Source: Prevotella sp. | Lineage (GTDB): Bacteria > Bacteroidota > Bacteroidia > Bacteroidales > Dysgonomonadaceae | Reading direction: 5' to 3' | Assembly (NCBI GenBank): GCA_031285625.1 | Contig: JAITVV010000063.1 | Location: 1-64,000, forward strand | DNA: 64,000 nucleotides | Shown: piece by piece, positions 15,358-33,800 of the stretch | How the letters are laid out: each line of letters starts with the position of its first letter | Numbering within the stretch: position 1 is the first letter of the stretch | The notes under the pieces: model-generated | The model's input: only the letters and a program-made list of their open reading frames with translations | Told to the model about the DNA's origin: nothing | The model's database searches: none | Translations under genes and position numbers: made by a program

Positions 15358-18300
15358 TTAGAATGAAATATCTACGCCAAAACTGAAAGATGTCACATTT
15401 GGATACGAATAATTTCCTGTATCGGTTTCAGGGTCCACTCCGTTCCAGTTTGTAATAACAAACGGGTTGTTAACATTCGCGGAAATACGTATGCTGTTTG
15501 CTATTGATTTGGCAACAGGGATTGTATATCCGACTGTAATATTCCGGCATCTCAGATAATTGATTTTCTTGAAATAGTAGTCTCCAACGCCATACGAGCT
15601 TTGAAGGAGGCTTGGAACCGTTGTATTCTGGTTGTCATTCGAATATGAATCCAAAGTGCGCCGTGACAGGTTGGTCAAATTGCCTCCTAATCCAGTTATC
15701 CATGAATCATAATAGCTGGCTCCTCGCAAACGTCCAAACTCGCCATAGAAATAAATATTGAAGTCCAGATTTTTGTATCGGACTGTATTATTAAATCCTA
15801 CGCTACATTTCGGGTCTGAGGTACCCAGGTAAACGATATCATACTGATTCAACAAGTTAGGCGAACCTTCTTCGTCATAAACATTTTTCAGTTTAATCTG
15901 CCCCGGTAATAAAGACGGTTGCCAAGCCGGAGCCGTTTCACCGGCCTGCAATAATCCGTCGGATAAATTGACATAATGAGAACGTATCGGGTCTCTTTCC
16001 GACTCGTAGTAAGCAGGTGTCCAATTCGGGTCACGTTCGTACCAGTTATCTTTGTTGGTAGAGAAAGTGAAATCGGTACTCCATGTCCAGTCTTTATTTG
16101 TAATATTCACGGTATTCAGTGTCAACTCAAACCCGCGGCCTTGTGTTTTGCCCATATTCGCTGCAATCTTATTAATCTCATTATACGCAGGCAGAGGTTT
16201 GTTGTTAACCAACAAATCAGAGATTATCCGGTTGTAATATTCCATAGTCAATGCAATCCGGTTATCCAGGAAGCCTAATTCTAAGCCAACATTGAATTCG
16301 CTAGTAGTTTCCCAGGTTAATTTTCTGTTTCCCAGTTTTGTTGTTGCAGTACCCGTATATCCGTCGTTCCCGAATACCCAGCCGGCAATCACACCGTAAG
16401 CATCTGTCATATAGTTTCCAATATTGGAGTTCCCGGTTTGTCCGTAACTGGCCCTCAATTTACCATTCGAGAGAATATTGGAAAACGGCTTCATAAATTC
16501 TTCATCACTGAACCGCCAACCTAACGATACAGAAGGAAAATAACCCCAGCGGTAATCCGGATGGAAATTTGCAGCACCGTCGGCACGGACAGTAGCCGTC
16601 AACAAGTATCTACCCAGATATGAATAGTTCAACCTGGCGAAATAAGAACCCAAAGAATTATTATAAGCAGAAGAATTTACAAATGGTTTAGCACTGCCTC
16701 CTGCCCACAAACTATTATAAAGGAAACCATCGGTAGAGAAATCTTCATTACCAGCAAATACACTTTCTACATTAAATTGTTGGTAGGAATACCCTACTAA
16801 TGCTGTCAGGTTATGGCTACCAAATTCTTTTGTATAGTTTGCCGTTAATTCCATAAGGTAATCCATATTATCCCTTTGCAGAATATTGGCTATTCCGCCT
16901 TTTGCATATCCGGCTATCGTAGTAGTAGGTACATAACTCTTGTTTTTGTCATACCTGCGGTCAAAACCTAAATTCGCTTTCAGAATTAAACCTTTTATGG
17001 GTTCTACTTGAACATAACCACTGGCAAGTACCCGGTCATTTGTCGTTTTATCCGTAATCTCCAGTAAAGAAACAGGATTCGGATACTGCGCCATATCCGG
17101 GAATATTGAATAATCACCATTTTCATCCCGGACAGGAACACTCGGGTCGAAGCGTAAGGCCGATGTTATAATACCCGCTCTTTCAAAGTCACTATCCCCC
17201 AACTGGGAATTATCATACTGATTCCGGCTCAGGTGGAATGAGAATCCGGTTTTCACATACTTAGAAATTTCCTGATCCAAATTTACTTTCATGGTAAACC
17301 TGTCCATTGCGTTATTTCTAACAATACCTTTCTGGTTAAAGTAATTTAAGGATGCTGCGTATTGTGTTTTCTCAGATCCACCGGTTAAAGATACATTATG
17401 GGATTGTTGTATTCCGGTACGTGTTATTTCATCCAGCCAATCTGTAGTTTGTGCAGCTGCAATTTCCGCATCAGTATATCTTGGAATATAAGGATCGTTT
17501 GCAGGTGCGGGTTTACCACCATATATTCCTTGTCCCGTCTTATGCAACCATGTTTCGTGAACAAACCGGTTTCTCTGTGTCATATATTCCTGGGCATCCA
17601 GCATTTTATAATTGTTCCTGACGTTTTGCACTGTCACGTTTCCGGAATAAGTAACTTTAGGTGCTCCGCTTTTACCTCTTTTAGTCGTAATAATGATAAC
17701 CCCATGACCGGCGCGTGACCCGTAAATGGCTGTTGCACTTGCATCTTTTAGGACTTCAATAGATTCTATATCATTGGGGTTGATAGATGCTAATATATTA
17801 TCGACAGTTCCGGTTTTATAGTAATTCCTATCCGAATCCAGAGTCCAAGAAGTGGAAACTGGAAAACCATCAATGATAAAAAGAGGGTCATTCCCTGCAT
17901 TAATGGATGTTGCTCCACGAATACGGAATGTCGCACCACCACCTACTTGTGCACTGTTCTGAAATACCTGCAATCCGGCAGCTTTGCCTGCCAGGGCATG
18001 AGAGACGGTTGATATGGTTCCGACAGGAGTGTCGGTCATCTTTACCGATGATATAGCACCGGTAAGGTCACGTTTTTTCTGTACTCCGTAACCCACAACG
18101 ACTACTTCATCAAGGCTTTGGGCTTCTTCATTCAATACAATCTGGAACTGTGTCTGTCCTTTTATATCAATGTTCTGACTCAAAAATCCAACGTATGAAA
18201 CAAGTAAAGTTCCGGTTTCAGGGACTGATAAAGAGAATTTCCCATTGAGATCAGTCATAGTTCCGTTTGTGGTACCTTTGACACTTACATTTGCTCCGAT

Positions 18301-18735
18301 AATAGGCTCTCCTGCTTGGTCGGTTACTGTTCCTGAGATATTTTTCTTTACTTGTTTGAATAGAGATATGTGTTTATTGGTGATACGATAAGATATATCC
18401 GTACCCTTAAATAGTTCGTCCAATACAGCTTTGATATCTTTATCTTTTACTGATATTGAACGCTGATTATTTTTGTCTATTTCTTGTGTATTATAGACAA
18501 ATTTATATCCGGTTTCTTGTTCAATTGTATTGAATATTTGTTCATAAGAAGCATTCTTAAGGTCTAGTGAGACAGCATTTGATTGGGCTATCACAAAATT
18601 TGTCGAAAAGAAAAAAAAGCTAATACAGATAATTAAAATACGAGTAAGCTGTTTTTTTTCGCAAGAAATTGAGTTATAGAACCCTAAATGGACATTATTT
18701 TTTCTCTTATGCCCAATAAGTAACTTATTATTCAT
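15358..18735 (-). CDS. SusC/RagA TonB-dependent transporter with N-terminal STN signalling domain
   Basis: STN domain, LDEVVVVGYG, IESIEVLKDASATAIYGSRA, LTWETT, terminal Phe. Confidence 0.95.
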   Translation of the reverse strand: MNNKLLIGHKRKNNVHLGFYNSISCEKKQLTRILIICISFFFFSTNFVIAQSNAVSLDLKNASYEQIFNTIEQETGYKFVYNTQEIDKNNQRSISVKDKDIKAVLDELFKGTDISYRITNKHISLFKQVKKNISGTVTDQAGEPIIGANVSVKGTTNGTMTDLNGKFSLSVPETGTLLVSYVGFLSQNIDIKGQTQFQIVLNEEAQSLDEVVVVGYGVQKKRDLTGAISSVKMTDTPVGTISTVSHALAGKAAGLQVFQNSAQVGGGATFRIRGATSINAGNDPLFIIDGFPVSTSWTLDSDRNYYKTGTVDNILASINPNDIESIEVLKDASATAIYGSRAGHGVIIITTKRGKSGAPKVTYSGNVTVQNVRNNYKMLDAQEYMTQRNRFVHETWLHKTGQGIYGGKPAPANDPYIPRYTDAEIAAAQTTDWLDEITRTGIQQSHNVSLTGGSEKTQYAASLNYFNQKGIVRNNAMDRFTMKVNLDQEISKYVKTGFSFHLSRNQYDNSQLGDSDFERAGIITSALRFDPSVPVRDENGDYSIFPDMAQYPNPVSLLEITDKTTNDRVLASGYVQVEPIKGLILKANLGFDRRYDKNKSYVPTTTIAGYAKGGIANILQRDNMDYLMELTANYTKEFGSHNLTALVGYSYQQFNVESVFAGNEDFSTDGFLYNSLWAGGSAKPFVNSSAYNNSLGSYFARLNYSYLGRYLLTATVRADGAANFHPDYRWGYFPSVSLGWRFSDEEFMKPFSNILSNGKLRASYGQTGNSNIGNYMTDAYGVIAGWVFGNDGYTGTATTKLGNRKLTWETTSEFNVGLELGFLDNRIALTMEYYNRIISDLLVNNKPLPAYNEINKIAANMGKTQGRGFELTLNTVNITNKDWTWSTDFTFSTNKDNWYERDPNWTPAYYESERDPIRSHYVNLSDGLLQAGETAPAWQPSLLPGQIKLKNVYDEEGSPNLLNQYDIVYLGTSDPKCSVGFNNTVRYKNLDFNIYFYGEFGRLRGASYYDSWITGLGGNLTNLSRRTLDSYSNDNQNTTVPSLLQSSYGVGDYYFKKINYLRCRNITVGYTIPVAKSIANSIRISANVNNPFVITNWNGVDPETDTGNYSYPNVTSFSFGVDISF

Positions 18736-18763
18736 ATTTTTGTATGTTAAAAATTTGATACTT

Positions 18764-18853
18764 GGCAGTTATAGAAGACTGCCGGTTGACAATTTACGTT
18801 TGGGGGTGTTTGCGTCATCCCCAAATGTTTTTTAGGAATTACGGACTCTTCAT
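18764..18853. promoter_or_regulatory. Structured leader between fecR and susC
   Basis: Hairpins at 18764-18783 and 18797-18827; mini-ORF MKSP* at 18853-18839 on the minus strand. Confidence 0.45.
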
Positions 18854-18899
18854 GATGTTTTTCTTTTAAGGTTTAACAATGCTTTTCTAGTTTATTTAG

Positions 18900-19796
18900 T
18901 TAATTAAGGTAAATCTCTCCACGTTTCTTTTCTATTCTATATTTTGCTGATATCTGAAGTATTGAAAGTATTTCATCTAACGTTTCTTTTTCATTAAATA
19001 CAGCATTGAATGTCTTTTTTTGCATAGCTTGGTTTCCAATGTGTATCTTAACATGGAATGCCCTTTCCAGTTCTTGTGTAATCTCGGCTAAAGTGTTATT
19101 CTCAAAACGGAATTCTCCTGTAAACCATGACATAACATTATCCATGCGTATCGGCAAGATATCAATTTCTCCTTTTGATATTGAATATATTGCCTGTTGA
19201 TTAGGCATAAGGATTTTAGCAGACTCGGAGTATTGACCGTCTTCGTATAATGCGACCTTGCCTTCGAGTAGAGATATTTTAATTTCATCGCTTTGAGCAT
19301 CTGTTATTACATTAAAAGATGTTCCTAACACTTTAATCTGTAATTTCCCTAAATCCACAATAAAGGGCTTCTGTTCATCTTTATGTACTTGAAAAAATGC
19401 TTCTCCGGAGATATCTACTTTCCTATTTTCACCATCGAATGAACGGGGATAAGTAAGACGGGCATTGGCATTCAGCCACACTATACTGCTATCCGAAAGC
19501 ACAACTTTAGTCTTAGCGTCCGCCACGGCTGTTACTTCGTACCAGATTAATTCCGGTTTAGCATTATCTGTATTTAAGAAATGATAGGAAGAAACAATAA
19601 GAAGAGCTACAGAAGCAGCAATCGAAAACCATTTCCATACTGAAGATATACTTTTTCTTAAAGGTATATCTCCAATACCTACTCGTTCTTGTAACCGTAT
19701 ATAGTTTACTTCCGAATCATATTCAGGCGATTTGAATCGAATCCGGTTTATCAGATCGTCTTTTTTGTGTTCCTGTATATTATTATCATCTTTCAT
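18900..19796 (-). CDS. FecR-family anti-sigma factor
   Basis: Single TM helix; LSDSSIVWLNANARL, GEAFFQV, IKVLGTSFNV, DUF4974-like C-terminus. Confidence 0.92.
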   Translation of the reverse strand: MKDDNNIQEHKKDDLINRIRFKSPEYDSEVNYIRLQERVGIGDIPLRKSISSVWKWFSIAASVALLIVSSYHFLNTDNAKPELIWYEVTAVADAKTKVVLSDSSIVWLNANARLTYPRSFDGENRKVDISGEAFFQVHKDEQKPFIVDLGKLQIKVLGTSFNVITDAQSDEIKISLLEGKVALYEDGQYSESAKILMPNQQAIYSISKGEIDILPIRMDNVMSWFTGEFRFENNTLAEITQELERAFHVKIHIGNQAMQKKTFNAVFNEKETLDEILSILQISAKYRIEKKRGEIYLN

Positions 19797-19883
19797 GGTA
19801 GCGCTTTTATTATAAGATGACAGTGGTTGGTAAAAACTACGGGTTGATATCTAGTTTTTTTACAATTTTTCTAACTTTTTCTC

Positions 19884-19891
19884 TAACTTTG
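19884..19891 (+). promoter_or_regulatory. -7 promoter element for the ECF sigma gene
   Basis: TAACTTTG upstream of the ATG at 19958. Confidence 0.55.
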
Positions 19892-19957
19892 CTGAAAAGT
19901 ATGTAAATGTAGGGTATACAGAAATTACATACCTTAAATAAAAAGCTGTAAAAGAAA

Positions 19958-20500
19958 ATGGAGCTGGAGTACTTGTTAGATAAAATCATAGAAGGGGATG
20001 AGAATGCTCTGCGATTGCTATTTGAAAGGTATTCACTGAGATTATTTCAGCTTGCTTATTATTATTTACAGGCAAAAGAGCCTGCCGAAGAAACGGTATT
20101 GGATGTATTTACTATCTTCTGGAAGAAAAGACAATCTTTAGGTCATATTAAAAATATTGAATCTTACTTATACACTTCTGTCAAAAACCAGGCATTACAT
20201 TATATTCGCCGGGATTATTATTCTGATAAAACGAGTATTAATTTATATGAAGTAGAACTGATTCCTGAAAATAATGATCCAGAGAGTACCCTGCTCGACA
20301 GGGAGTATGAGCACCTTATACAAGAGGCCATAGATTCATTACCTCCGAAATGCAAAGAGGTGTTTCGTCTTGTTTTATCTGACAAGCTAAAGAACAGGGA
20401 GATAGCTGAGCTGTTATCTATCAGTGAAAGCACTGTGAATGAACATATTGCTTTAGCTTACAAACGTATATCATTATATGTGAGGAAACGTTATAAATAA
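19958..20500 (+). CDS. ECF RNA polymerase sigma-70 factor (Bacteroides expansion family)
   Basis: GDENALRLLFERY, YLYTSVKNQAL, LPPKCKEVFRL...EIAELLSISESTV; divergent from FecR. Confidence 0.92.
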   Translation: MELEYLLDKIIEGDENALRLLFERYSLRLFQLAYYYLQAKEPAEETVLDVFTIFWKKRQSLGHIKNIESYLYTSVKNQALHYIRRDYYSDKTSINLYEVELIPENNDPESTLLDREYEHLIQEAIDSLPPKCKEVFRLVLSDKLKNREIAELLSISESTVNEHIALAYKRISLYVRKRYK

Positions 20501-20815: not shown

Positions 20816-21772
20816 TTACAACCAATCAACATATTCCCTTTGCTTCTTAAAGTACTCAGCCTGAGCAACCTCATTTGATCCGCTGATTAAGGTAGAATAT
20901 TTTTTCATAGACAAAAACCATTCCTTGTGTGCTTCGCATATCTCAGGCTTGGTTAGTACTATTCTATTGAAAAAGTTGAGAGAAAAAGAGGAAGTTATTT
21001 TCCCGTTCCACTCATAATATACACTGTTTACATCAATATTAAAACTGGATAGATAAAAATAATTATTCGATTCAGAGTTAGTGGCACTTGTTCTCATCAT
21101 TTTTTCTGCGAAGTAGAGTATTTGATGAATATCTTTCTTTATTATTTTTATTTCCTCTTTGTTTATTAACTCCAGATCATGAAAATAACGAACTAGTTTT
21201 AAAGGGGTCAGAAATACATTTGGATCTAAAATAAACGAATTGTTTTTTAATCTTCTTGTTTTAACGTTTATATTACTTCTCAATTCTTCCAATTCGGCAG
21301 GAATTTCAACTTCCGAAAATTTAGGTTTTACGACGCCTCTGTCTCTCCAATGAAGCCACAGATAATAAGCTAGCTTAAACAAATTTTTATGATGGACACT
21401 GAATTCTGCCGGGAAGTAATTCAAGGCAAATATTGCACTTGAGGATTTATCAGTAAAACGGTTATCCACATCTGCTTTATACTTTCTCATTTTATCCAAA
21501 AAACCTTCTGTTGGATCTTTGTTGATTTTTAGATCTATGACTACCTTGCTATTATTGATTTTTAATGCTACAAGTTCGTCCAAAGAAAAATCCAATAGTT
21601 CTGACAAGATAATAAGTTCTTCGAAATAGAATGACATTTTTCCGCCTAATCTTCTGTATGCAGATTCCCGGCTAATGTCAAGTACCTCTGATAAATAATC
21701 AACAGGTTTGATATGAGAAGGTATTAGTTCCAGTATTTTATTGATAATTATTGTTTTTATATCTTTATTCAT
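20816..21772 (-). CDS. HTH (XRE/BetR-like) transcriptional regulator with uncharacterised C-terminal domain
   Basis: LSEVLDISRESAYRRLGGKMSF...FSLDELV HTH; C-terminal KKYSTLISG shared with the upstream paralog. Confidence 0.75.
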   Translation of the reverse strand: MNKDIKTIIINKILELIPSHIKPVDYLSEVLDISRESAYRRLGGKMSFYFEELIILSELLDFSLDELVALKINNSKVVIDLKINKDPTEGFLDKMRKYKADVDNRFTDKSSSAIFALNYFPAEFSVHHKNLFKLAYYLWLHWRDRGVVKPKFSEVEIPAELEELRSNINVKTRRLKNNSFILDPNVFLTPLKLVRYFHDLELINKEEIKIIKKDIHQILYFAEKMMRTSATNSESNNYFYLSSFNIDVNSVYYEWNGKITSSFSLNFFNRIVLTKPEICEAHKEWFLSMKKYSTLISGSNEVAQAEYFKKQREYVDWL

Positions 21773-22759
21773 AAGAATAATCCTTGTTTGTGATGTTTTT
21801 TATATAGCTACGTTGTTGATTTATAAATTTTATCTGTAAAATCTCATTACATCCGCTTATTAATGTCGAATATTTCTTAAGAGAATTAAACCAAGAAAGG
21901 TATGTCTTACATATTCTTGCATTAGTAGACCTGATATTTATTCCATAAGATATCCATAAGTTTATTGCCTCTTTATCATCATATTTGGAATATAGTCCTG
22001 ACGAATCAATCTGAGTACTGGATAAATAGATGTAATTTGTGTATCCTTCTATCCGATCTCCCTGTTTTATAATATACTCCATTACATCAATAAATTATAC
22101 AGGTCTTTTTGTAATAGAAGCATCTCACTATCCGAAATAAGCTGTCTGTTATAATAGTATTGAATTTCCCTAACTGTGTTTCTCAAAAAATAAATATCCA
22201 ATATATATGTATGGTTTCCCGATCTTTTATATGTCTTAAGTTTTTTTTGCTTAGCAAGAAGACTATCGGATAATACAATATCTGAGAGGCTGAAGCCCAA
22301 TGGTTTCAGTTGCGTCTGATGTATCCATCTATAGTAATAAAACTTAAACAAATAATCAAAATTAACAGATGTCAGAATCATCAAGCGGTTTGCAGTAACC
22401 ATTACTTCCAACTTTTTTGCCTTACTTGTTTTATCCAAGTTATGGATATATGCAGAAAGAAAATCCAGAAAGGTTTGTTGTGGATTGAATAGCTTATCTG
22501 ATTGAGACTGGAATAAGATAGGCTGTTGTCCCGCTTCATTATTCAAACTAGTATAAACTATTTCGTCCAAGGAAATAAATAACCTGGAAGATATCTTTAT
22601 CAGATCCTCTAGAGTAAAAGAGACTTCTCCCTTTATTCTCCTGTATATTGATTCTTTGCTGATACCAAGTACATCATGCAAGAAATCGACAGGGTTTAGA
22701 TACGATGGTATCTTTGCTAAGATTTTAGCAGTTATTTTTCTCCTTAATTCTGTCTCCAT
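21765..22759 (-). pseudogene. Paralogous HTH regulator split into 225+105 aa ORFs by a 1-nt frameshift near 22090
   Basis: The two ORFs together are colinear with the 318-aa neighbour; adding 1 nt gives ...YNFIDVMEYII... (~331 aa). A sequencing error is possible. Confidence 0.7.
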
Positions 22760-23022
22760 TTATTTTATCTATAAAATCAAAAGATGATGCGGACACAAAA
22801 ATATCATTATTTTCTTCAACTAAAACAATCGAGAAAATCAGTAGTAGCAACAAAACGGGCACTATATATAATGTAAAATAAAGCAAAAATCTTAATCATT
22901 ACCAATTGAAACACAGAAAAATATTGATAAATTTTCAATTATAACATTTTTGTTTGTCAGATACTTGAAAATATCTCATTTTATATTTAATTCTTTTTCA
23001 TTATTATCTTTTCCTAAAGCTC

Positions 23023-23030
23023 TAACTTTG
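23023..23030 (+). promoter_or_regulatory. -7 promoter element for the secreted-protein operon
   Basis: TAACTTTG ~95 nt upstream of the ATG at 23125. Confidence 0.5.
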
Positions 23031-23124
23031 TATCATTCAAAGACAATTTTATTCAAAAGCATAAGTCAACAAGTTCAAAGTAAATCTTACACAGATTTTT
23101 AATAGACAACATTATCTAAATAAA

Positions 23125-24270
23125 ATGCGTAACTATATTTTTCTAAAAGTACTAACTGATAAGTTTTTTCTGTTTGTACTGTTACTTGCTTCAACTATGT
23201 CTATATACAGCCAGGTTACAATAGGTTCAGATTCTCCCCCTAGACCGGGGGCCTTACTAGAACTGAAAATAAACGAAAACGATAGGGCTAATGCTAACAA
23301 AGGCATCTTACTTCCTCGTGTAAACCTTAAAGTAAAAAATCAGCTTTATCCTATGTTCGATGAAAATGATCAGACATATACCGACAGCGAAAAAAAGATC
23401 CATACCGGCCTGATGGTATATAATATGACTAATAGCTTGCTCGAAGATTTATGTCCGGGACCATATATTTGGGATGGTAACAATTGGGACAGATTATGGA
23501 AACCCTGTTCAGATGCATTCAAGATAGAATGTACTAATATTTATGTAACAGGATATATTGACAAAGATATGAGTGCGACTACTCCGGTCGTACAAATACC
23601 ATATAAAATATCAGGCACGATGCAAGGTACATATACTGTGCCTGCAGGCACAATAGGAAGCTATGGTAATGTAGTAGCCAAGGTAGAAAAGCAGACACTA
23701 ACATCTACGTCAGGATTTATCAATGTGAAATTTTCGGGAGCCCCTACTGTCATTGAAGACTTAATTCCTTTTTCTATCCAGATAGCGAATAGTACATGCT
23801 CTATCTACCTGTCAACCATAAAACCTCCGTCCGATTGTCCTGATGGCACTACCGCAAGGGGCTTTGTTTTCGAGCAAAATTCAAAATGGTATGTCGTGAC
23901 TTCCGGTATTTATAATAATTATAAAGTCGCTCAGACGATACAATGTGATACGGAAGAAGAAGCACTAAGCCATCCTGAGGCACTCCAATATTGCGGAGAT
24001 AAGAATGATAATAGATGTGTGAGACTCTTTAAAAGAGATGGTACACATGCCGGAAATGTAAATATGACAACCCGTAGTTCCGGCTGGTTAGAAGGTATTC
24101 TCGAATTTTACCTGGGATGTCAGATGAATATTATTGCTTATAGCGGCAGTAGAATACAATGTATCGAGTTTGGCAGAGGATATATTGGAGCAGTAAATGT
24201 TTCGGGAGGCAGAGGATATTTGGGATTTACATCCCAGATAGCAACTATGTCAACTAAGCCTTTGAGATAA
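23125..24270 (+). CDS. Secreted protein: QVTIG-family N-terminal domain, Ig-like stalk, Cys-rich tip
   Basis: Signal peptide then QVTIG..P.PGALLELK..NKGILLPRVNL..HTGLMVYN..PGPYIWDGNNW. Confidence 0.7.
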   Translation: MRNYIFLKVLTDKFFLFVLLLASTMSIYSQVTIGSDSPPRPGALLELKINENDRANANKGILLPRVNLKVKNQLYPMFDENDQTYTDSEKKIHTGLMVYNMTNSLLEDLCPGPYIWDGNNWDRLWKPCSDAFKIECTNIYVTGYIDKDMSATTPVVQIPYKISGTMQGTYTVPAGTIGSYGNVVAKVEKQTLTSTSGFINVKFSGAPTVIEDLIPFSIQIANSTCSIYLSTIKPPSDCPDGTTARGFVFEQNSKWYVVTSGIYNNYKVAQTIQCDTEEEALSHPEALQYCGDKNDNRCVRLFKRDGTHAGNVNMTTRSSGWLEGILEFYLGCQMNIIAYSGSRIQCIEFGRGYIGAVNVSGGRGYLGFTSQIATMSTKPLR

Positions 24271-24318
24271 AAAGTTTATAGCAAATGCGTTTATTATAAT
24301 AAGATAAAACCAAAACGA

Positions 24319-24974
24319 ATGAAACTATTAAAAACAATAATTTGTAGCCTTGTCTTCATATTCTTCTTATGTATCAGTGGAGGGTTGAAAGCTCAGGTAA
24401 CGATTGGTTCAGGCATTGAACCAAACAAAGGAGCATTATTAGACCTGAAAGAAAAAACTCCGGTCGATCCGGCGGTTGATAATTCTACTGCTAATAAAGG
24501 TATAGGGTTGCCAAGAGTAAATCTGACCTCATTAACTACTCTTACCGACATTAGTGACGCTGTTGGTAAGGAGCTACAACATACTGGCCTAATGGTTTAC
24601 AATATCAATACCGTTGTAGCAAGTAATATTTCGCCAGGAATATATGTATGGGATGGGATACAATGGGTCAAAGGCAATACTGAAACAGTAGCCAGTAATG
24701 AATTCTATTATATGCCGTCGTTTAATCTACCATTATCGACAGTAGGTACACAATATTATCCTATATACTGGAATATATAACCCAATTTACAAAAGCAGGC
24801 TTACCTGTTCATCCGGCGGATAAAATAGAGTTTAGAATAACCTATAATGACCCGTCACTGATTACCAATATTTCTTTTCCTGCCGAATATGGAAATGAAT
24901 ATATGAAATATGATGTAATAAGTACCACAGCCCCTGTTGGTTCATTCACAAATATTATTATCGTAGTAAAATAA
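24319..24974 (+). CDS. Secreted QVTIG-family protein, frameshifted near 24765 (fused ~218 aa)
   Basis: Same N-terminal domain. The -1 frame continues LEYITQFTKAG...SFTNIIIVVK* to 24974, 4 nt before the next ATG. Confidence 0.7.
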
Positions 24975-24978
24975 GTTA

Positions 24979-26787
24979 ATGAACATGATAAAAAGAATTA
25001 TATATATAGTTTCCGCGCTTATATTCTTATGTACTGGAGAAATAAATGCACAACGTGAAACATATAACTGGATATTCGGAGATAAGGCTGGCCTTACATG
25101 GAATACTACCCGTGATTTTACTGGTATCTATGTGTATGGAGGGACTGGTTCGGTGACTCTCAACGGTATGCCAACCAATATCACTTCTCCTTTGACTGCT
25201 ACACAGGGATGTTTTACCCTGTCTGACAGGAAAGGAAAGCTATTGCTCTTTTCTAATGGCTCTAAATTATATAATGCTAACAAGGTAATAATGAATCCGA
25301 CCACAGATATGGTCGGGAACATAGACAATGCCCAGTCAGGTATACTTTTCCCTTATCCGGACAATCCAGATAAATATGTGGCCGTGACAACCGGCAGGTG
25401 GAGCAATGACTTTCTTGGCTATACCATAATAGATATGAAAGGTAACTCCGGACTAGGAAATATAGAGTCAATGAACAATTCTTTCCCTGCTGGTCGTAAG
25501 GGAAAAGTCGGCTCCAGCATTACGAGTACCAGACATGCTAATGGCGTGGACTATTGGGTTATAGCTCCAGGTAAAGGAACTCCATCTTATATAAACATCT
25601 GGCGTTTCACCCCGGATGGAATAGCTCCCCCTCAGTCTTTTCAGCTTCCTGCTAACGTAGAAGAAAACAAAGCAAACGGATACTTTAAGATTTCTCCCGA
25701 CGGAAAACATTTCGTTTGGGGAACCTTCAGCGACAGTAAACTGTTTTTTGGAAATTTTGATAATGCTACAGGAACCTTTAGCAATATAAGACATATCACA
25801 AGCTCGGCTGGAGGCAATGAGTTCTATGGGGTTGAATTTTCAATGTCGGGGAAATATATGTATGTAAGTAAGACAGCAAGTGGGTTAGTTTCAGAATTTC
25901 TTCTATATGTGTTTGATTTCGATGCGCTTATAAATTCATCGAACCCTCAGAATTATTATCAGACCCAAATGAAGCGGATATCTTTTCCCTCCACAAGTGG
26001 TATGCCTGCGGCACTTCAGCTGGGACCCGATGGCAGAATGTATATATCCGGATATCCATATTTTTCGTCTCCTGCCTCTTTTTACGTAATAGAAAATCCC
26101 GAACAATATAATAACTTGAAAATTTACAGACTGGATAATTTTCTTACAGGATCTCCCTATTTTGGCCTGCCTTCGTTTGCTGCTTCATGGTTTGAACTCA
26201 AGATCGGGGGTGAAACAGAATTTTGTTTAGATAATGTTGAAAGAGAATATACTCTTGTAATATCGAAAGGAGTCGGTAGTGAACAGCTTGCATACACACA
26301 GTGGAACTTTGGCGACGGATCGACTTTAATAAAAGATTATAATGTGACTGATGGTAATATACAATCCTATATGCATGCTTACAATACTGCCGGAAATTAT
26401 ACCATTACTGTAACAAGCCATAAAGCAAATGGTGAAGAAATAACAGCAATGGGCAGACAGACACTGAATATTAAAGTTCTTGACGTGCCTTCATTCACTG
26501 TTACGGCAAATGACGTATGTATAGGCGAGTCGGGAACAATGACAGTAAATATAACAGGTAATGATTTTACTATAAACTGGTATAATAGCATGGCTAGTAT
26601 AACTCCCATCGGTACAGGTAAAACATGTTCTACGGGAATGCTAAATGCCGAGGGGACAGTCACATTCTATGTGGAGGTTGTAAATACCTTAGGATGTAGT
26701 TCCGGAAGAGTAGCCGTAAATGTAACGGTAAAATCCTGTGGAAACAACTTTATCCCTGTAAATCCGCATATAAGGATTACTCATTAA
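24979..26787 (+). CDS. Secreted beta-propeller + PKD + Ig-like protein with C-terminal PVNP motif
   Basis: Signal peptide; NWIFGDKAGL, ALQLGPDGRMY; PKD WNFGDG...HAYNTAGNYTITV; ends IPVNPHIRITH. Confidence 0.7.
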   Translation: MNMIKRIIYIVSALIFLCTGEINAQRETYNWIFGDKAGLTWNTTRDFTGIYVYGGTGSVTLNGMPTNITSPLTATQGCFTLSDRKGKLLLFSNGSKLYNANKVIMNPTTDMVGNIDNAQSGILFPYPDNPDKYVAVTTGRWSNDFLGYTIIDMKGNSGLGNIESMNNSFPAGRKGKVGSSITSTRHANGVDYWVIAPGKGTPSYINIWRFTPDGIAPPQSFQLPANVEENKANGYFKISPDGKHFVWGTFSDSKLFFGNFDNATGTFSNIRHITSSAGGNEFYGVEFSMSGKYMYVSKTASGLVSEFLLYVFDFDALINSSNPQNYYQTQMKRISFPSTSGMPAALQLGPDGRMYISGYPYFSSPASFYVIENPEQYNNLKIYRLDNFLTGSPYFGLPSFAASWFELKIGGETEFCLDNVEREYTLVISKGVGSEQLAYTQWNFGDGSTLIKDYNVTDGNIQSYMHAYNTAGNYTITVTSHKANGEEITAMGRQTLNIKVLDVPSFTVTANDVCIGESGTMTVNITGNDFTINWYNSMASITPIGTGKTCSTGMLNAEGTVTFYVEVVNTLGCSSGRVAVNVTVKSCGNNFIPVNPHIRITH

Positions 26788-26879: not shown

Positions 26880-26913
26880 AAAATCCGGTAAGCCGTGAGG
26901 CCCACCGGATTTT
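26880..26913 (+). terminator. Hairpin/terminator downstream of the operon
   Basis: AAAATCCGGT-AA-GCC-GTGA-GGC-CC-ACCGGATTTT with GNRA loop. Confidence 0.65.
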
Positions 26914-27150: not shown

Positions 27151-28836
27151 TTAATTAGTACAGCTTATTATTAAATTGTTATCTGAAGGGATCAATCTGA
27201 ATACAAAGTCTGAGTTATTTCCTTTTACAATACTACCCTTTTCGCATGCAATATTATATTTAAATCCACGGAATTCTGCACTTATTGATGATTCCCTAAA
27301 ATCCTTAAAAGGTAATCTTTCTATTCTTTCTTGTGGTATTTTCAATTCCAGCATCCATATAAATCTTTTATCTTTAATACCATTACATGATACTTCTATC
27401 TTATTTTCATGGAATTCTAAAACAAAATTGTCGCCATCTTTATCTTTAGACTCAACTCTCAATACATTTTTTGAAGGTTCGCGGACAACAGGGTTTGTAA
27501 GAATTACATCTTTCTTATTCCCTTCTTTATCTACCTTTATAAATCTAAGCCCTGTCTTATCTTCGGGTGTACTCCAATAGAAACGGTCGATTACCGGAAG
27601 TGTATAATAAAAGAACTGGTTGCCTGTACCTGGTGTATCCAAGTATTCCGATTTGAAGTTTTCATCAAATAGATGAATATCTCTGAAACAGAATCCATCA
27701 TTTTCCCAAAACAAATTTGCCCTATAGAAACGGCTGTTATACCATACCGATTTGTTACCCTGATTACGCACATCAGCAAGGGTCGTAATAGCAGTAGCAG
27801 GTGTATGAGAGAATTGCTCTTTAAACCATTTGCCTGATTCTTCTAAGGTTTCTACCCTGATCTTACCAGCTGTGCGTAATGAATCGAATATAGGAAATTG
27901 CATTTCCAATCCGTCACCCATTCCTTCCCAGGTAAACGAATTCTCTTGTCCTGCCTGTGTATAGTTGAAAGCCAAACATGGCTCATTAGTAATGGATTCA
28001 AGAAAATATTCAACCCACTTCCTACTTTTTCCCGAATCATGGTATACAGGCTCAAGAGATATAACCCCCTGATAATTAGTCCCGACTCCGGCATCGTACT
28101 GATACATAGGATCGCTTCCCAGCATGCGGAAAATAGGTACCGGGATTTGTCCTGTTTCTGTCTGTGCCGGCATATAAGCATTATTTTTACTTGGATAATA
28201 CGCCTGATTCCAATAACCTCCCCACAATGTATAACCGTCTGTACCAACCTGATCTTTGCAGTTACATGAAGCAACTATCGCGTATTTATCATACATATAT
28301 TGCAATGTATGAGAGTCTATAAACCATGAGCCTACCGATTTAGGATATTTACCATATATTTCCTTAAATTTTGCCATATACACATCAACAAGCTTCTCCC
28401 TCTCGGCTTTTGTATATCCGGGTGTGAAAGCAATATTTGCAGTTGAAACCCAAGAGTGTTCGCCACGCCATTTTATTCCGGCAGCTTCAACATGTGGCTG
28501 CGTGATTTCCCACCATGCCCCTATCTCGGATTCCGCACGAAGTTGAGTCTTCATCAATTCCTGATACTTAGGATTGATAAGCGCATCGAACTGAAACAAA
28601 AATGTAGTAGGGAAATTATATTTATTAGACAGGGCTATCTGTTTTTGTACAGCATCGAACATGAGGTTATCGGAATCCTTCACACGATAGTCAGTCTGTC
28701 GGATAAAGTTGATAATATTAATAATCCGGGGAGCTTTTTCAGTAGGTTCTTTTACACTTTTCTTTTCTGTACAACCTGATAATAGTATCGGAAATACCAG
28801 TAAGAGGTATAAAAAATTAATTCCTTTTGCTTTCAT
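27151..28836 (-). CDS. PUL-associated conserved lipoprotein (GH57/deacetylase-like barrel suspected)
   Basis: Lipobox LSGC; IINFIRQTDYR, EIGAWWEI, FKEIYGKYPKSVGSWFID, GQENSF. Confidence 0.6.
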   Translation of the reverse strand: MKAKGINFLYLLLVFPILLSGCTEKKSVKEPTEKAPRIINIINFIRQTDYRVKDSDNLMFDAVQKQIALSNKYNFPTTFLFQFDALINPKYQELMKTQLRAESEIGAWWEITQPHVEAAGIKWRGEHSWVSTANIAFTPGYTKAEREKLVDVYMAKFKEIYGKYPKSVGSWFIDSHTLQYMYDKYAIVASCNCKDQVGTDGYTLWGGYWNQAYYPSKNNAYMPAQTETGQIPVPIFRMLGSDPMYQYDAGVGTNYQGVISLEPVYHDSGKSRKWVEYFLESITNEPCLAFNYTQAGQENSFTWEGMGDGLEMQFPIFDSLRTAGKIRVETLEESGKWFKEQFSHTPATAITTLADVRNQGNKSVWYNSRFYRANLFWENDGFCFRDIHLFDENFKSEYLDTPGTGNQFFYYTLPVIDRFYWSTPEDKTGLRFIKVDKEGNKKDVILTNPVVREPSKNVLRVESKDKDGDNFVLEFHENKIEVSCNGIKDKRFIWMLELKIPQERIERLPFKDFRESSISAEFRGFKYNIACEKGSIVKGNNSDFVFRLIPSDNNLIISCTN

Positions 28837-29246: not shown

Positions 29247-30869
29247 TTATTTATAATTAGGATTTTGCACTAATGAATCTTTACTTTTGATTATCTCTGC
29301 CCGAGGAATTGGTAACAAATAATGTTGAGGAAGGAAATTCCTTTCCAGAACCATAATTGGATTATATGTAAATGTTCCATCACTTTCCTTAACCACTTCA
29401 ACTCCTTTCGCATCAATATTTTCGTAGGTTTCAGCTATAAGCCATCTACGTAAATCGAAATAACGATGATTTTCGAAAGATAGCTCAATACGGCGTTCAT
29501 TGCGTAATTTTTCGAGCAGTCTTACTCCTGTTTCTGTTACAAGTGGCATTTCCACCCCTTTGCGGCTCCTTACTTTATTTATAGCCACTCTACATTCGTC
29601 TTCGTTCCCTAAATAATATTGTGCTTCAGCATAATTCAAATAGAATTCAGCTAACCTGAAATACACCCATGGTTGGGTATTTGTCTCGCTAAGCGACTGG
29701 TTCTCATCTATAAATTTGTAAAGATAATAGCCTGTCAAAGATGTATTCCAGCTACCAACATCTCCCTGCGAGCTATCTCTTCCTTTGGGTATAAATACCT
29801 CTACTGCACGTCCTCTGTACATTGCTCCATTATACAATATGGATGCATAAAAACGTGGATCGCGTCCTTCGTATGGATTTGCCGGATCATAGCCCGAACC
29901 TGCTTCTGCAGGTTTTTTACCGGTTACCTTCATTTCGTAATCATCCACAAGATTTTGTAAAGGGCAGTTGCCTCCCCAACCATCATAGCCGTTAGGAGAG
30001 TTATATAAATTCATCCTGTGCCCGTTTACTTTTGTATATTCTCTCCTGAATATTACCTCTTTATTGCTTTCGAAAAATATTGATCTGTAATCTGAAGCCA
30101 GTTCGTAACCCTGAAGCTGAAGTATTTCGAGTGAGGCGTCACGAGCTTTTTGCCATTTGGATTGTTCATTATTAGGATTATTCAAAGGACTGGCAGCATA
30201 CAACAGTACTCTGGCTTTTAGAGCCTTGCAGGCATCTGCACATGCTCTACCCGAATTAGTACCTTCCATTTTATCCGGTAAGCGTGTTATTGCATCATTC
30301 AGATCAGACAGTATAAATTCGACACATTCATCGTATGTGTTTCTGGTTACAGAATAGTCTTCTTCTCCCATCGAATAAGATCGTGTAATAATAGGTACTC
30401 CTCCAAAACGCCAGATAAGATTGGAATAAATAAATGCACGGATAAACTTCATTTCTCCTGTCAATCTAGACTTTAAATCCTCAGATACAGTGGCCTTATC
30501 TATTTTCTCGAAATAAATATTAACGTTGCGTAAATATTCATAGGCTTTTTCCCAATAGTTGAAATTGGAAAAGCGTCCCGAATCGAAAGTTGTAATATTA
30601 TCGGCGGTCATTTCTCCCCTTGATACTATTATAGAACTCTCCTTCCCATGCCGAGTGTATGTCTCGTCTGTAGTGGAAGACATCATAGCCTCTTCAAAGC
30701 CCGTAGGATAAGCATTGTAACAAGCGTTGACATAGGCTGTCAATAAAGCCTCCTCATTAAAAACATCTTCCTCTGTCATTTTATCAAGTGGTTTCCTGTC
30801 CAGAAAATCGTCACAGGAGATAAAAATCGACGACAGCAAAATAAGACTGATATATGTTATTTTCTTCAT
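29247..30869 (-). CDS. SusD/RagB-family lipoprotein
   Basis: FISCDDFLDRKP, GRDPRFYASIL, FRLAEFYLNYAEA, ERRIELSFENHRYFDLRRW. Confidence 0.95.
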   Translation of the reverse strand: MKKITYISLILLSSIFISCDDFLDRKPLDKMTEEDVFNEEALLTAYVNACYNAYPTGFEEAMMSSTTDETYTRHGKESSIIVSRGEMTADNITTFDSGRFSNFNYWEKAYEYLRNVNIYFEKIDKATVSEDLKSRLTGEMKFIRAFIYSNLIWRFGGVPIITRSYSMGEEDYSVTRNTYDECVEFILSDLNDAITRLPDKMEGTNSGRACADACKALKARVLLYAASPLNNPNNEQSKWQKARDASLEILQLQGYELASDYRSIFFESNKEVIFRREYTKVNGHRMNLYNSPNGYDGWGGNCPLQNLVDDYEMKVTGKKPAEAGSGYDPANPYEGRDPRFYASILYNGAMYRGRAVEVFIPKGRDSSQGDVGSWNTSLTGYYLYKFIDENQSLSETNTQPWVYFRLAEFYLNYAEAQYYLGNEDECRVAINKVRSRKGVEMPLVTETGVRLLEKLRNERRIELSFENHRYFDLRRWLIAETYENIDAKGVEVVKESDGTFTYNPIMVLERNFLPQHYLLPIPRAEIIKSKDSLVQNPNYK

Positions 30870-30879
30870 TTCCGTTTAT

Positions 30880-33800
30880 TTAAAAAGTTATGTTTACACC
30901 TGCATTAAAAATTCTGACTTGTGGGTAATATGTTCCTTTACCATCGCTGCTTTCAGGGTCTATCACTTTTATCTTATCTAAAGTCAAAAGATTGTATCCG
31001 CTTAAGTATACCCTGCAATTTGAAATATTAAGCTTCTGAAACCATTTTTTTGGTAAGGTATATCCTATCTCAACATTTTTAAGACGAAGGAAAGATGCAT
31101 CTTTCAGATAAAAGTCAGAACCATACGATTCCATGCTATTGATACTTCCTCCGGCTCTAGGATTTGATCCGTTCGGATTATCCGTAGTCCACCTGTCTTT
31201 TGCCTGTTCCATATAAAAATTACCTGTTTGATCCATCCTGGAATAAATGGCTTGCTTTGCCCGTGCCTGTCCTTGCAACAAGACGCTCACATCCAGATTT
31301 CTCCATTCTGCTCCTAAGTTCAGACCAAACACTATTTCAGGGAAATTTGTCAGATCTTGTCTTACCCTATCCATAGAATTAATAATTCCATTATCATCTA
31401 CGTCTTTGAATATCAAGTCCCCAGGTCTTGCACCTTCCATATGTGGATATGAGTCTACATGAGCCTGATCTTTGAAAATACCTATTACCTCATAATATAA
31501 TCCTGCACCCAAAGGCTGACCTTCTTCTTTCATATAGTCGTATCCTTCCCCCCAAGGAGTTTCATCCATGTAGATTACTTTATTGCGTGCATATAAGAAA
31601 TTTCCAGAAGCATTAAAATTCACTTGTCCAATTTTACTTCTATGATTTACCTGAAACTCTACACCTTTATTCTGTACTTTTCCAATATTTTCGTCAGGAA
31701 GGTCTTTCAATCCTGTATATTGGGGAATGGAGGCATTGCGGCGTCTTAATATACTTGAGCGTTTGGTTTTAAACAGGTCGAATTCAAAGCCCAACAGCCC
31801 GTTCCAGAAATTACCATCCAGTCCAATATTATATGTATCAGCAACTTCCCAAGTAATATCCATATTAGGAAATCCTTCCTGATACACACCTTGTACAACT
31901 GTATTTCCAAAAACATAATTTCTTCCGGTTGCGTATTTTAATAGATACTGGAATGCTCCTACATTATCGTTACCTTGCTGTCCGTAAGACGCTCTCAATT
32001 TCAGATTATTTATCCATTCTATATTATCTTTTATAAAGTTCTCTTCAGAAAGCCTCCATCCAAGCGATACTCCGGGAAAGAATCCCCATCTTTTGCCTGA
32101 GGCAAAGATATAGGAACCATCATTTCTGAAATTGAACTGAGCCATATATTTTCCGGCATAATCATATGCTAATCTACCGAAATAACTCCTACGGGCCTGT
32201 TCAAAAGCGCTTCCTCCCACATCAAGATATTCTTTATTGGTGCTTCCGGCAAAGAGTTGGTCAATAGCTGTAGACAGATAGTTGGAACGCCATGCCCAAA
32301 AGTCGTTTCCTTTATTTTCGTTCTGCTCGTAACCTAACATTAAATCAACTCCATGCAGAGAATTGAAAGTTCTTTTGTAGTTTATCTTAGCATTCAACGT
32401 AAATGATGTTCTAGGCACATAGTCTTGTCTGAGTTCGGCAAAATCGCGTCCTCCATTTTTCTTTTTTTCATAGACGTTCGTCGCTTCATCCCATACATAG
32501 TAATAGAAAGGTGTCTTCCATTCTTTCTTCTCCATGCCTTCTTTATCAAAAGCCATATAACCGTCGACAGACAGCCCCTCTGTCAACCAAGACAAATCTA
32601 AAGTAGCAGAAAACGTACTATTAAAAACAGATTTATTGTATTTTCTATATCCGGTTTCACTGGTAACTAACGTCACAGGATTTCCGATATCCATCCCGGC
32701 TGTTGGTAATCCATTAGGATAACGAGCCAGAGATGTAGGGAAAGAACGTGTTAATGTGTAAAAAATAGTTCCGCTATCGTAACCTGAATAATGCTGGTCT
32801 TCAATTCTTCCGGCAAGGTCAACCGATACCTTCAGATGTTTTGTTATTTGAGCATCAATATTTGACCTGACATTATATTGTTTATAATAAGTATCACTCT
32901 TCTTATATATTGCATCCTGATCCGAATATCCTCCTCCTATAAAATATTTAACTCGATCATTACCTCCTCTTATAGACAGGTTATGCTTTTGCTGTAAAGT
33001 ATTTTTTCTAAGAGTTTGGTCAAACCAATCTGTATTAGGATAATGGACAGGGTCTGAGCCATTGCGAAATTTTTCGATTTCTTCGGCTGTATATCTTGGT
33101 GTACGGCCTTCATACTCTTCCACTTCATTAAATACCTGAGCAAATGTTGCTGCATCAGCCATCTTCGGCAAACGAGTCGGTTGCTGAACTCCTACATTAT
33201 ATGAATAGTTTATTGTAGGCTTACCTTCTTTACCGCGCTTTGTGGTAATGAGTATAACACCATTAGCCGAACGCGATCCATAAATAGCAGCCGATGCGTC
33301 TTTCAATACTGTGATACTCTCTATATCATCCGGATTGATTCTATCCCAGTTTCCACTTCTATTGGCAATTCCATCTATAAGAATCAAAGGATCCGTATTT
33401 CCGCTTGTACTCTTACCTCTGATACTGATAGATGCCCCATCTGAACCCGGCTCTCCGTTTCTCACATTCATAATTACCCCGGAGATTCTACCTTGCAATG
33501 ATTGCCCGATATTCATTGACGGGCTTTTTACAATATCCTCTCCTTTTGTTGTTGATATGGATCCGGTTACCAATCCTTTCTTTTGTGTTCCGTAACCAAC
33601 AACCATGACTTCATTTAGCTGCTGGTTATCTTCTTTAAGAATCACATTTATTTCTTTTTTCTCTTTAGTCTGTATTTCCTGGGCAATGTATCCTACATAA
33701 GAGAATACCAAAGTCGAATTACTATCTGTTACATCTATGATGAATTTACCATCCATATCAGTAATTGTACCTTGTGTAGTACCTTTTACCACCACGGAAA

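Follow-up and report, generated by a model that had tools for sequence, protein, structure and literature searches.

A conserved Bacteroidales locus pairs PTL_trimer proteins, predicted to form homotrimers with exchangeable heads, with a tail-bearing propeller-PKD protein

We describe a five-gene locus at positions 20816-26787 of a 64,000-nucleotide stretch of DNA (hereafter the window) from contig JAITVV010000063.1 of the Prevotella sp. assembly GCA_031285625.1. The assembly comprises 4.84 Mb in 96 contigs and its best named relatives are Dysgonomonas species. Two paralogous genes for helix-turn-helix (HTH) proteins, HTH1 and HTH2, are divergent from ORF1, ORF2 and ORF3, and all five reading frames are present at their coordinates. 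We find that the locus is a real, conserved module in which ORF1 and ORF2 share an N-terminal domain, the Pfam family PTL_trimer, and in which ORF3, a propeller-PKD protein with a short C-terminal tail, is by sequence comparison the conserved downstream genetic partner of ORF2. The explanation that accounts best for all of the observations, and which we hold to be probable, is that the PTL family consists of exported proteins that form homotrimers and carry interchangeable heads, which probably bind ligands. The identity of the domain, the expansion of its paralogs, the gene pairing, the tail and the frameshifts reported below come from analysis, and the trimer comes from prediction only.

Results

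The N-domain shared by ORF1 and ORF2 is the Pfam family PTL_trimer

Over 114 aa the N-terminal domains of ORF1 and ORF2 are 39% identical (E 6e-21), and the C-termini do not align, in agreement with the original prediction, made from the sequence of this locus, of a common N-domain joined to unrelated C-termini. PF26696.1 is present in the precomputed annotation of the ORF1 record and of all 46 listed homologs, and 97-100% of the members of the nearest ESM Atlas clusters carry PF26696, which is PTL_trimer, the "phage tail like trimerisation region" (Pfam 38.1). ORF2 was assigned to the PTL family through its similarity to ORF1 and our own profile A1 (E 3.8e-30), not through the PF26696 model. 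We conclude from these comparisons that the shared domain, which opens with QVTIG, is PTL_trimer and is already catalogued. The system had been called undescribed, which for the N-domain is an overstatement, and the match to an existing family that had been named as counting against the proposal was in part found. No functional paper on the PTL_trimer family was found in the literature searched.

The conserved motifs of the domain are ..GALL.LK.., KG.LLPRV, HTGLxVYN and G.Y.WDG..W. An iterative search returned 35 ORFs with the domain in the present genome, where it opens with Q[VI]T.G directly after a hydrophobic leader in 33 of 34 strong copies, the sole exception being an internal copy in a gene with stops. 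Four proteins of the genome have two tandem PTL copies. In 131 of the 145 top representatives from a wider search, the domain follows closely on the leader and opens with Q[VI]x[IV]G. Mature signal-peptidase-I substrates of Bacteroidetes tend to start with Gln (the "Q-rule"), and Gln at the first mature position of PTL proteins would fit this rule. One 830-aa frame of the genome (G000:C64:9426-11918, plus strand) has a C-terminal PTL domain, and a TGA and a TAA fall within its six-frame match; the gene may be broken or wrongly joined.

Each of the 18 same-genus genomes sampled contains between 6 and 39 PTL matches, and only one of 12 genomes from other families of the same order contains any. 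Outside the genus, an evenly drawn sample of the phylum yielded 10 of 199 genomes with matches at E<=1e-6, one or two in each. All of these counts come from a profile that was trained on the present genome and under-counts distant members. In a HMMER search over 1.84 billion representatives (clusters at 50% identity), 7105 passed E<=1e-3, of which 2246 also passed E<=1e-10. The relatives that have names belong to records of Dysgonomonas, Symbiothrix, Tannerellaceae, Paludibacteraceae and Prevotella.

The N-domain is predicted to form an intertwined homotrimer

Three copies of the N-domain (104 residues) were predicted to form a homotrimer with an ipSAE of 0.93 in each of three runs, compared with a best of three of 0.00 in the controls; the runs agreed in at least 100% of contacts, and the partner predicted local distance difference test (pLDDT) score was at least 90. 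The input was our own alignment of 25 paralogs with three copies of the chain, and in the calibration, which used two copies, 20 of 30 proteins with a solved one-chain pair and one of 23 solved as single chains reached the mark. The residues in contact in the predicted trimer are the conserved motifs. Sequence searches of the PDB with ORF1 and with the N-domain profile gave no hits (E<=10), and it is therefore unlikely that the trimer result reproduces a solved complex. When modelled as a monomer, the N-domain has low confidence, which fits an obligate oligomer without proving one. These models suggest that the N-domain forms an intertwined homotrimer. Such a prediction had been put forward as a check on the original proposal and came out in its favor, and it agrees with the name of PF26696, an entry that covers the domain only.

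Heads carried by ORF1 and by the wider family

The AlphaFold2 model of ORF1 has a pLDDT of 83. Residues 132-232 match immunoglobulin (Ig)-like linker domains (VIA-align Z ~8), and for residues 235-381 the top 27 VIA-align matches are all beta-trefoils (Z 8.3-9.8, root-mean-square deviation ~3 Å, 115-133 residues aligned), including Kunitz inhibitors, ricin-B-type and fungal lectins, and MIR domains. The head had no sequence family match, no QxW-type repeats were seen in its sequence, and Foldseek with the ORF1 model against the PDB returned nothing at E<=1e-3. Taken together with the trimer prediction, the models point to ORF1 as a trivalent, lectin-like binder that would bind a ligand, possibly a glycan. 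The ORF1 head is also fused to the end of a 1262-aa ORF3-like protein at a paralogous locus on contig C37 of the same genome.

Among the paralogs and their neighbors in the present genome, Fib_succ_major was found in 4 of 24 and a sub-threshold C1q match in one. We also scanned 108 representatives, which are the members of 200-700 aa among the best 145, taken in rank order up to a limit on residues. Fib_succ_major was present in 25 of these (23 above the cut-off), one of which also had Big_2; Lcl_C was present in three, one of them above the cut-off; and one of the 108 gave only unrelated matches with no passing stretch. The heads seen on PTL proteins are a predicted beta-trefoil, Fib_succ_major, Lcl_C, a weak C1q match and a beta-propeller. 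The proposal that the N-domain is a trimerization module carrying swappable tips is upheld by the PTL_trimer identity, the predicted trimer and these differing heads.

Neither ORF1 nor ORF2 matched PF09603 (FISUMP, Fib_succ_major/TIGR02145); some FISUMP proteins share the PTL stalk with the proteins of the locus, but the head is not shared. One study counts Fib_succ_major among the targets of diversity-generating retroelements, and its abstract states that these targets often have to do with ligand binding (PMC11661182); a Fibrobacter membrane proteome lists one Fib_succ_major protein as non-cytoplasmic (PMC4619616).

A small-PTL gene is paired with a tail-bearing partner

ORF2 belongs to a subfamily of small PTL proteins of 215-265 aa, which consist of the PTL domain and a conserved C-domain of ~95 aa ending ..[FY].NI.FV.K. 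The C-domain is modelled with a pLDDT of 92-97, and with a best VIA Z of 4.2 it matched no solved fold and nothing in BFVD. Fold searches gave no match to a C-terminal domain of the type IX secretion system (T9SS), a result that does not exclude such a domain.

ORF3 has PKD/PKD_4 and Ig_7 (the "CHU_C associated" Ig domain) above the Pfam cut-offs, and the profile of its family matches 1L0Q, a solved surface-layer protein with a YVTN beta-propeller and a PKD domain (E 1.2e-14, profile positions 235-476); below 1L0Q, the profile matches hydrazine synthase beta and lactonase-type propellers. These matches agree with the earlier assignment of the third gene as a propeller/PKD protein. The search for ORF3 homologs found 234, of which we consider the best 120. 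Close homologs (73-88% identity) are from the same genus, and among the best 120 of 234 the distant ones (27-31% identity) have CHU_C or Por_Secre_tail sorting domains, often with PF26689. P[VIL]NP occurs within the last 22 residues of 42 of the 120, and many others end ..TNRMIR..L.N.., so that the PVNP tail proposed from ORF3 alone proved to be real and conserved. The best explanation of this pattern is that ORF3 descends from T9SS cargo, that the sorting domain was lost and that a short Cys..PVNP tail stands in its place.

The tails take two forms, type 1 (Cys-x-Phi-P-V-N-P/H-N..) and a variant, type 2 (..[ST]N[KR]M[IV][RT]..). The present genome has three intact small-PTL members in addition to the split ORF2. 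Two of the intact genes and ORF2 are each followed, within 30 nt, by the gene for a large secreted tail protein, and the third intact gene is followed by that for the 1262-aa fusion. Among the 3358 genes of at least 150 aa in this genome, the type-1 tail occurs in two and the type-2 tail in one, and all three lie directly downstream of a small-PTL gene. We retrieved 49 named loci with the small-PTL alignment, 15 of which hold a small-PTL gene. Nine of the 267 complete ORFs in the named loci bear a tail, and 9/9 are directly downstream of a small-PTL gene; viewed from the other side, the gene that follows the small-PTL array has a type-1 tail in 7 of 14 readable arrays (one runs off the end of the locus) and a type-2 tail in three. 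In genomes G003 and G016, all five ORF3-like matches follow a small-PTL match.

The type-1 tail is borne by propeller-PKD, IgGFc_binding and FG-GAP proteins. At same-genus loci, which were chosen for PTL, HTH or ORF3 matches, two partners, an IgGFc_binding protein of 662 aa and an FG-GAP protein of 792 aa, share the ending ..RSC.LPVNHNI.., and the last ~95 residues of the two are homologous (E ~1e-15). Partners with the type-2 tail are one family of ~545 aa that is Pfam-negative. A 544-aa protein encoded after the small-PTL gene on contig C30 was considered as an ORF3 homolog and rejected (hhalign probability 0.5%); it belongs to this ~545-aa family.

For ORF3, which had been proposed as a possible base or cap, gene order and sequence show that it is the conserved downstream genetic partner of the small-PTL gene ORF2. 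Co-localization beyond this locus, which the original prediction had anticipated, was seen for HTH genes beside PTL genes and more strongly for the ORF2-type/ORF3-type pair. No description of the small-PTL subfamily, the gene pair, the tails or the HTH family was found in the literature searched, a search that left the text of the Pfam entry unread, and the pairing of a small-PTL gene with a tail-bearing partner appears to be a new point, the stalk domain itself being already known.

Other arrangements of the same parts were seen. A larger paralogous cassette in the present genome (L001, G000:C37:84000-96000) has three tandem HTH genes, a small PTL (258 aa) and an ORF3-like protein (702 aa, tail ..LPVNPNIHLIN), and then continues with a second small PTL (255 aa) and the 1262-aa protein, an ORF3-like propeller-PKD array fused to the ORF1 Ig and beta-trefoil head. 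Two HTH-linked arrays, one in the present genome (L003, G000:C28:104700-109200) and one in another (L029, G008:C9), encode three PTL proteins of ~285-310 aa whose C-terminal region differs from that of small PTL (ending ..YQYYED.. or ..F.YL..), and no tail-bearing partner lies downstream. Two proteins, one of them a Flavobacterium reichenbachii record, fuse an ORF3-type propeller to a C-terminal PTL domain. These Flavobacterium-type proteins (P0296 and P0304) are ~500 aa with the propeller first and the PTL domain last, and one ends ..CPDPVNPPK, the Cys..PVNP ending thus also following a PTL domain in one of the two.

A family of HTH proteins is enriched beside PTL genes

HTH1 and HTH2 share 33% identity over 227 aa (E 4e-31), and the N-terminal piece of HTH2 scores 27.3 bits with HTH_3 (cut-off 23) and 22.2 bits with BetR (cut-off 21.6). 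BetR was found at E<=0.01 in six of nine family members; HTH1 is Pfam-negative and was assigned by paralogy, and its orthologs are 318 aa and 85-94% identical. Members of the family are ~320 aa with an XRE/BetR-type HTH at the N-terminus and a remainder that has no family or solved relative. Against the PDB, the family profile hit only designed proteins, through repeats, and no stretch passed.

The present genome has 18 HTH genes or fragments (19 ORF pieces), and 10 of the 18, distributed over six loci, have a PTL gene within 3 kb. In four other same-genus genomes, 21 of 45 HTH matches are within 5 kb of a PTL domain, compared with ~5.5% expected by position (calculated for the one-contig G003), and 5 of the 15 named small-PTL loci have an HTH gene. 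The largest regulator array seen (L027, G003:C1:3457500-3470500) has five HTH paralogs, four in tandem and one divergent, and is flanked by a small PTL gene on one side and a gene for a 676-aa PTL protein on the other. We conclude that the HTH family is enriched beside PTL genes and is not obligatory. The pair had been cast as a dedicated regulator of the system, and in that form the claim fails, as the same-genus genome G014 has 30 PTL matches and no HTH match.

HTH2 and ORF2 carry frameshifts

Two of the five genes are interrupted. The HTH2 frameshift lies near 22085-22095, and both pieces align to HTH1. The ORF2 frameshift lies near 24768, and the C-terminal domain of its subfamily carries on in the frame that is open over 24726-24974; each of the two ORF2 frames is matched on its own by the C-domain profile (E 2.7e-7 and 2.2e-15). 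No long homopolymer is present at either site. In a near-identical contig (X2; two substitutions in 945 nt), a single additional T after 24768 keeps the ORF2 frame open, and in contigs from a relative at greater distance (X3, X5) a single additional C after 22094 does the same for the HTH2 frame. A contig from a run labelled termite gut metagenome (X1), which spans the whole stretch and may be its source, agrees with the window. The comparison was made from contigs, in which a real mutation and a consensus error are not separable, and at 85% likeness contigs X2, X3 and X5 leave parts of the locus uncovered, including most of ORF2 in X3 and X5. An intact ORF2 ortholog of 219 aa (73% identity) is present in genome G034, and a Dysgonomonas sp. 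521 record has the whole locus intact, with two HTH genes of 318 and 331 aa divergent from ORF1-ORF2-ORF3. Because ORF2 and HTH2 are frameshifted, the ORF2-ORF3 pair may be inactive in the present genome. Two ~320-aa paralogous HTH regulators and a three-gene operon had been proposed; the paralogy, the intact 318-aa HTH1 and the tight spacing of the operon (48 nt and 4 nt) stand, and the descriptions need amending for HTH2, which is split by its frameshift, and for the frameshifted ORF2.

Leaders and export signals

The leaders of ORF1-3 end ..YS/QVTIG, ..KA/QVTIG and ..NA/QRETY (the slash marks the end of the leader) and, as read from the sequence, are hydrophobic with no canonical lipobox. 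No T9SS C-terminal domain (Por_Secre_tail PF18962/TIGR04183 or CHU_C PF13585/TIGR04131) was found in ORF1-3 with Pfam or NCBIfam at E<=0.1, and PF18962 and PF13585, searched against all six frames of the genome, gave seven and two matches elsewhere and none in the window. The absence of a lipobox and of a T9SS sorting domain, both claimed earlier, was thus confirmed from the leaders, the family searches and the six-frame scans. The proteins of the locus also have no lipobox Cys and no pilin family match in Pfam or NCBIfam, and the view that they are not type V pilins (FimA/Mfa) holds. The genome encodes T9SS machinery, with SprA detected at 2723 bits on another contig, and a few canonical cargo proteins. 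The GldM model was silent in the genome and also in control genomes, and is uninformative.

Organization of the locus and its flanks

The features of the locus are given in Table 1. The gap between ORF1 and ORF2 is 48 nt and that between ORF2 and ORF3 is 4 nt when ORF2 is followed along its shifted frame. The sequence TAACTTTG at 23023-23030, ~95 nt 5′ of the ORF1 start, fits TAnnTTTG, which we take to be the Bacteroides -7 consensus. A sigma-70-type promoter scan fell below shuffled expectation, a consensus that is in any case unsuited to Bacteroidota. In an RNA-seq library of a relative, one 6.6-kb contig runs from 22740 across ORF1-ORF3 and another ends at 22682 on the HTH side, and a DNA contig of the relative bridges the gap from 22682 to 22740. 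The contig ends are a weak hint of two divergent transcripts, given that DNA carry-over in the RNA library is possible. The hairpin downstream of ORF3 is likely to mark the end of the operon.

We considered a phase-variable ORF1 promoter and rejected it, as convincing inverted repeats were not found flanking the intergenic region. The best flanking inverted repeat in the search for invertible-promoter repeats is 15 nt with 87% complementarity (22915-22929 / 23130-23144); it spans ~200 nt up to, and overlaps, the ORF1 start. This repeat is probably a chance occurrence in AT-rich DNA, and no recombinase gene is nearby.

Table 1. Features of the locus and its surroundings, in window coordinates
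Feature	Position	Strand	Description
SusC-like TonB-dependent receptor	15358-18735	-	with STN domain; part of a trans-envelope signalling set
FecR-type anti-sigma factor	18900-19796	-	same trans-envelope signalling set
Extracytoplasmic function (ECF) sigma factor	19958-20500	+	same signalling set
HTH1	20816..21772	-	intact, 318 aa; N-terminal XRE/BetR-type helix-turn-helix and ~240-aa C-terminal domain without family
HTH2	21765..22759	-	HTH1 paralog in two pieces: 22082-22759 (225 aa, HTH) and 21765-22082 (105 aa, C-terminal)
Divergent intergenic region	22760..23124		365 nt between HTH2 and ORF1
ORF1	23125..24270	+	381 aa: signal peptide 1-29, PTL_trimer 23212-23523, Ig-like sandwich 23518-23820, predicted beta-trefoil 23827-24267
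ORF2	24319..24974	+	small-PTL gene; annotated frame 24319-24780 (153 aa: signal peptide, PTL domain 24394-24699)
ORF2 C-terminal part	24726-24974	+	82-codon shifted continuation: C-terminal domain, end ..FTNIIIVVK
ORF3	24979..26787	+	602 aa: signal peptide, YVTN-type beta-propeller ~residues 25-430, PKD 26284-26439, Ig_7 26488-26733
ORF3 conserved tail SCGNNFIPVNPHIRITH	26734-26784	+	extreme C-terminus of ORF3
Hairpin	26880..26913		15-nt arms, 4-nt loop; between ORF3 and the convergent gene ending at 27151
Lipoprotein	27151-28836	-	561 aa, without Pfam family; convergent with ORF3
SusD	29247-30869	-	after the 561-aa lipoprotein gene
SusC	30880-34008	-	pairs with SusD

The locus is flanked by unrelated Sus-like systems on both sides. 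The set of ECF sigma factor, FecR and STN receptor (15358-20500) abuts HTH1 and is unrelated to the PTL locus. A further PTL member lies 12 kb from the locus (38926-40698, minus strand); it encodes 590 aa with a leader followed by QVTIGNEKEP..., is Pfam-negative and has no HTH gene nearby.

Discussion

We suggest that the PTL proteins of this locus work as follows. After Sec export, signal peptidase I would leave Gln as the first mature residue, at which the PTL domain starts, and the conserved motifs would interlock three chains, so that each protein presents three copies of its C-terminal part. The ORF1 trimer would present an Ig-like spacer and a beta-trefoil head, and the ORF2 small-PTL trimer would carry its private C-terminal domain of ~95 aa. 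The small-PTL trimer may bind or otherwise handle the tail-bearing partner to give a three-armed complex, which presupposes a contact between ORF2 and ORF3, and the divergent XRE/BetR-type HTH paralogs would most likely control transcription of the operon. We infer a cell-surface or extracellular location for the proteins of the locus. The logic resembles that of Legionella Lcl, the collectins and the C1q family, where an N-terminal trimerizing region presents three C-terminal binding heads, and Lcl_C or a weak C1q match is seen in some PTL members. The stalk of Lcl and the collectins, however, is collagen-like or a coiled coil, whereas the PTL domain is compact (~100 residues), and the stalk sequences are unrelated.

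A second and more tentative proposal, which is possible but on the less likely side, is that the locus represents a Bacteroidales tag-and-adaptor system, in which a short C-terminal tag replaces the T9SS sorting domain and a dedicated small PTL trimer, its gene always placed just upstream, recognizes the tag. The tag would be either form of the tail, as carried by adhesin-like proteins of unrelated kinds, namely YVTN propeller-PKD, IgGFc_binding, FG-GAP and ~545-aa proteins. In such a system the small PTL trimer would assemble three arms into a fiber-like complex or pass them to the export machinery, and arrays of XRE-type regulators would choose which cassette is expressed.

Several observations weigh against the reading of exported homotrimers with exchangeable heads and its extensions. 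The beta-trefoil call is based on middling Z-scores and has no sequence support, and 79 of the 108 representatives scanned have no Pfam match beyond the N-domain. Four of the 14 named small-PTL arrays have no tail-bearing next gene (two are followed by tail-less proteins and two by opposite-strand genes), and the same is true of two picked same-genus loci. The tail patterns were written after examples had been seen, which makes the counts of their specificity partly post hoc; the fair tests of specificity are the 49 named loci and the genome-wide background. Within 5 kb, 122 of 145 PTL matches in five genomes have no HTH gene. With two of five genes frameshifted, the module may be decaying in the present strain. 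The likeness to phage tail fibers, which had been part of the original prediction, receives a mixed answer: the name that the Pfam curators gave to the family supports it, and our own phage sequence searches came back empty. Searches by tblastn against 50,697 phage records returned nothing for ORF1 or ORF3, two scans of viral contigs gave no confirmed phage relative, and the best BFVD Foldseek match ("Tail protein") had an E of 4.8e-4 and a TM of only 0.18, the N-domain being of low confidence in monomer models. Finally, a signal-peptidase-I leader on a protein with no lipobox, T9SS domain or barrel makes the periplasm the default location in a Gram-negative cell.

This last point leads to the alternative that the PTL proteins are soluble binders kept in the periplasm or packaged into vesicles, for example for glycan capture alongside Sus-like systems, with the trimer providing avidity within the envelope. 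The leader is of the signal-peptidase-I type only and no known surface-export signal accompanies it, and the locus sits between two Sus-like loci. It is not co-oriented with the Sus genes, however, and an orthologous copy in another species is differently placed. Moreover, the distant relatives of ORF3 are T9SS cargo, that is, surface or secreted proteins, and the FG-GAP, IgGFc_binding and PKD architectures of the partners are typical of surface proteins. We regard a purely periplasmic or vesicular role as unlikely.

The tails could instead, together with the Ig-like domain that precedes them, be a third T9SS signal or another export signal, for which small PTL would be the cognate accessory, like PorP/SprF, and the pairing would then stem from secretion and not from a stable complex. 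Type B cargo of the T9SS is paired with cognate PorP/SprF-like partners, as for the gliding adhesins SprB/SprF. The comparison is apt in that distant homologs of ORF3 are propeller-PKD proteins that end in CHU_C or Por_Secre_tail where the close ones end in the tail, that tail proteins are encoded beside a dedicated small partner gene, that the genome has SprA and a few canonical cargo proteins, and that the homology of two otherwise unrelated partners extends over their last ~95 residues. It breaks down in that ORF3 itself lacks CHU_C and Por_Secre_tail, the tail extends only ~10-17 residues past a common Ig or PKD domain, small PTL is predicted to be a soluble trimer and not an outer-membrane barrel, and no T9SS gene is linked to the loci read. 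An export signal of this kind strikes us as distinctly unlikely. The solved propeller-PKD protein 1L0Q, from Methanosarcina, resembles ORF3 across the propeller blades and PKD, but it has neither Ig_7 nor the tail, and its organism and envelope differ; the similarity is at the level of domains only.

The strong expansion of the family, the swapped C-terminal modules and the phage-fiber-like architecture could also be those of secreted antagonists, either lectin-like bacteriocins or killers resembling tailocin fibers, whose variable heads target competitors; the size and fast divergence of the paralog family could then be explained. No toxin, enzyme or pore-forming domain was found in the members scanned, and in the loci read they have no small immunity-like gene as a partner, which makes this idea very improbable. 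Phage receptor-binding proteins and tail fibers do share with the PTL proteins an intertwined homotrimeric stalk (predicted for PTL), exchangeable distal domains and rapid domain shuffling among paralogs. The proteins of the locus differ from them in having Sec signal peptides, in being encoded by chromosomal operons with no phage genes and in having no phage sequence match, PHROGs likewise giving nothing significant for ORF1-3. That the locus is the remnant of a prophage or phage-tail-like particle, with domesticated receptor-binding proteins that have no cellular role of their own, is scarcely credible: the Pfam name of the domain and one ESM Atlas cluster similar to ORF3, whose few records are 83% viral, speak for it, yet no phage structural, integrase or lysis genes occur in or around the present or paralogous loci, no sequence matches were found in phage collections, and every copy carries a Sec signal peptide, which is absent from virion proteins assembled in the cytoplasm.

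We return, then, to exported homotrimers with exchangeable heads. PTL_trimer proteins are numerous, and our literature searches turned up no functional study; should they prove to be trivalent binders with exchangeable heads, they would constitute a major unexamined repertoire for adhesion or recognition. The named relatives are Bacteroidales that live in the guts of insects and other animals, a setting in which attaching to particles, protists or host surfaces matters. The display of Bacteroidota proteins that have neither a lipobox nor a T9SS domain is a known gap, and the pair of a small-PTL gene and its tail-bearing partner offers a testable handle on it.

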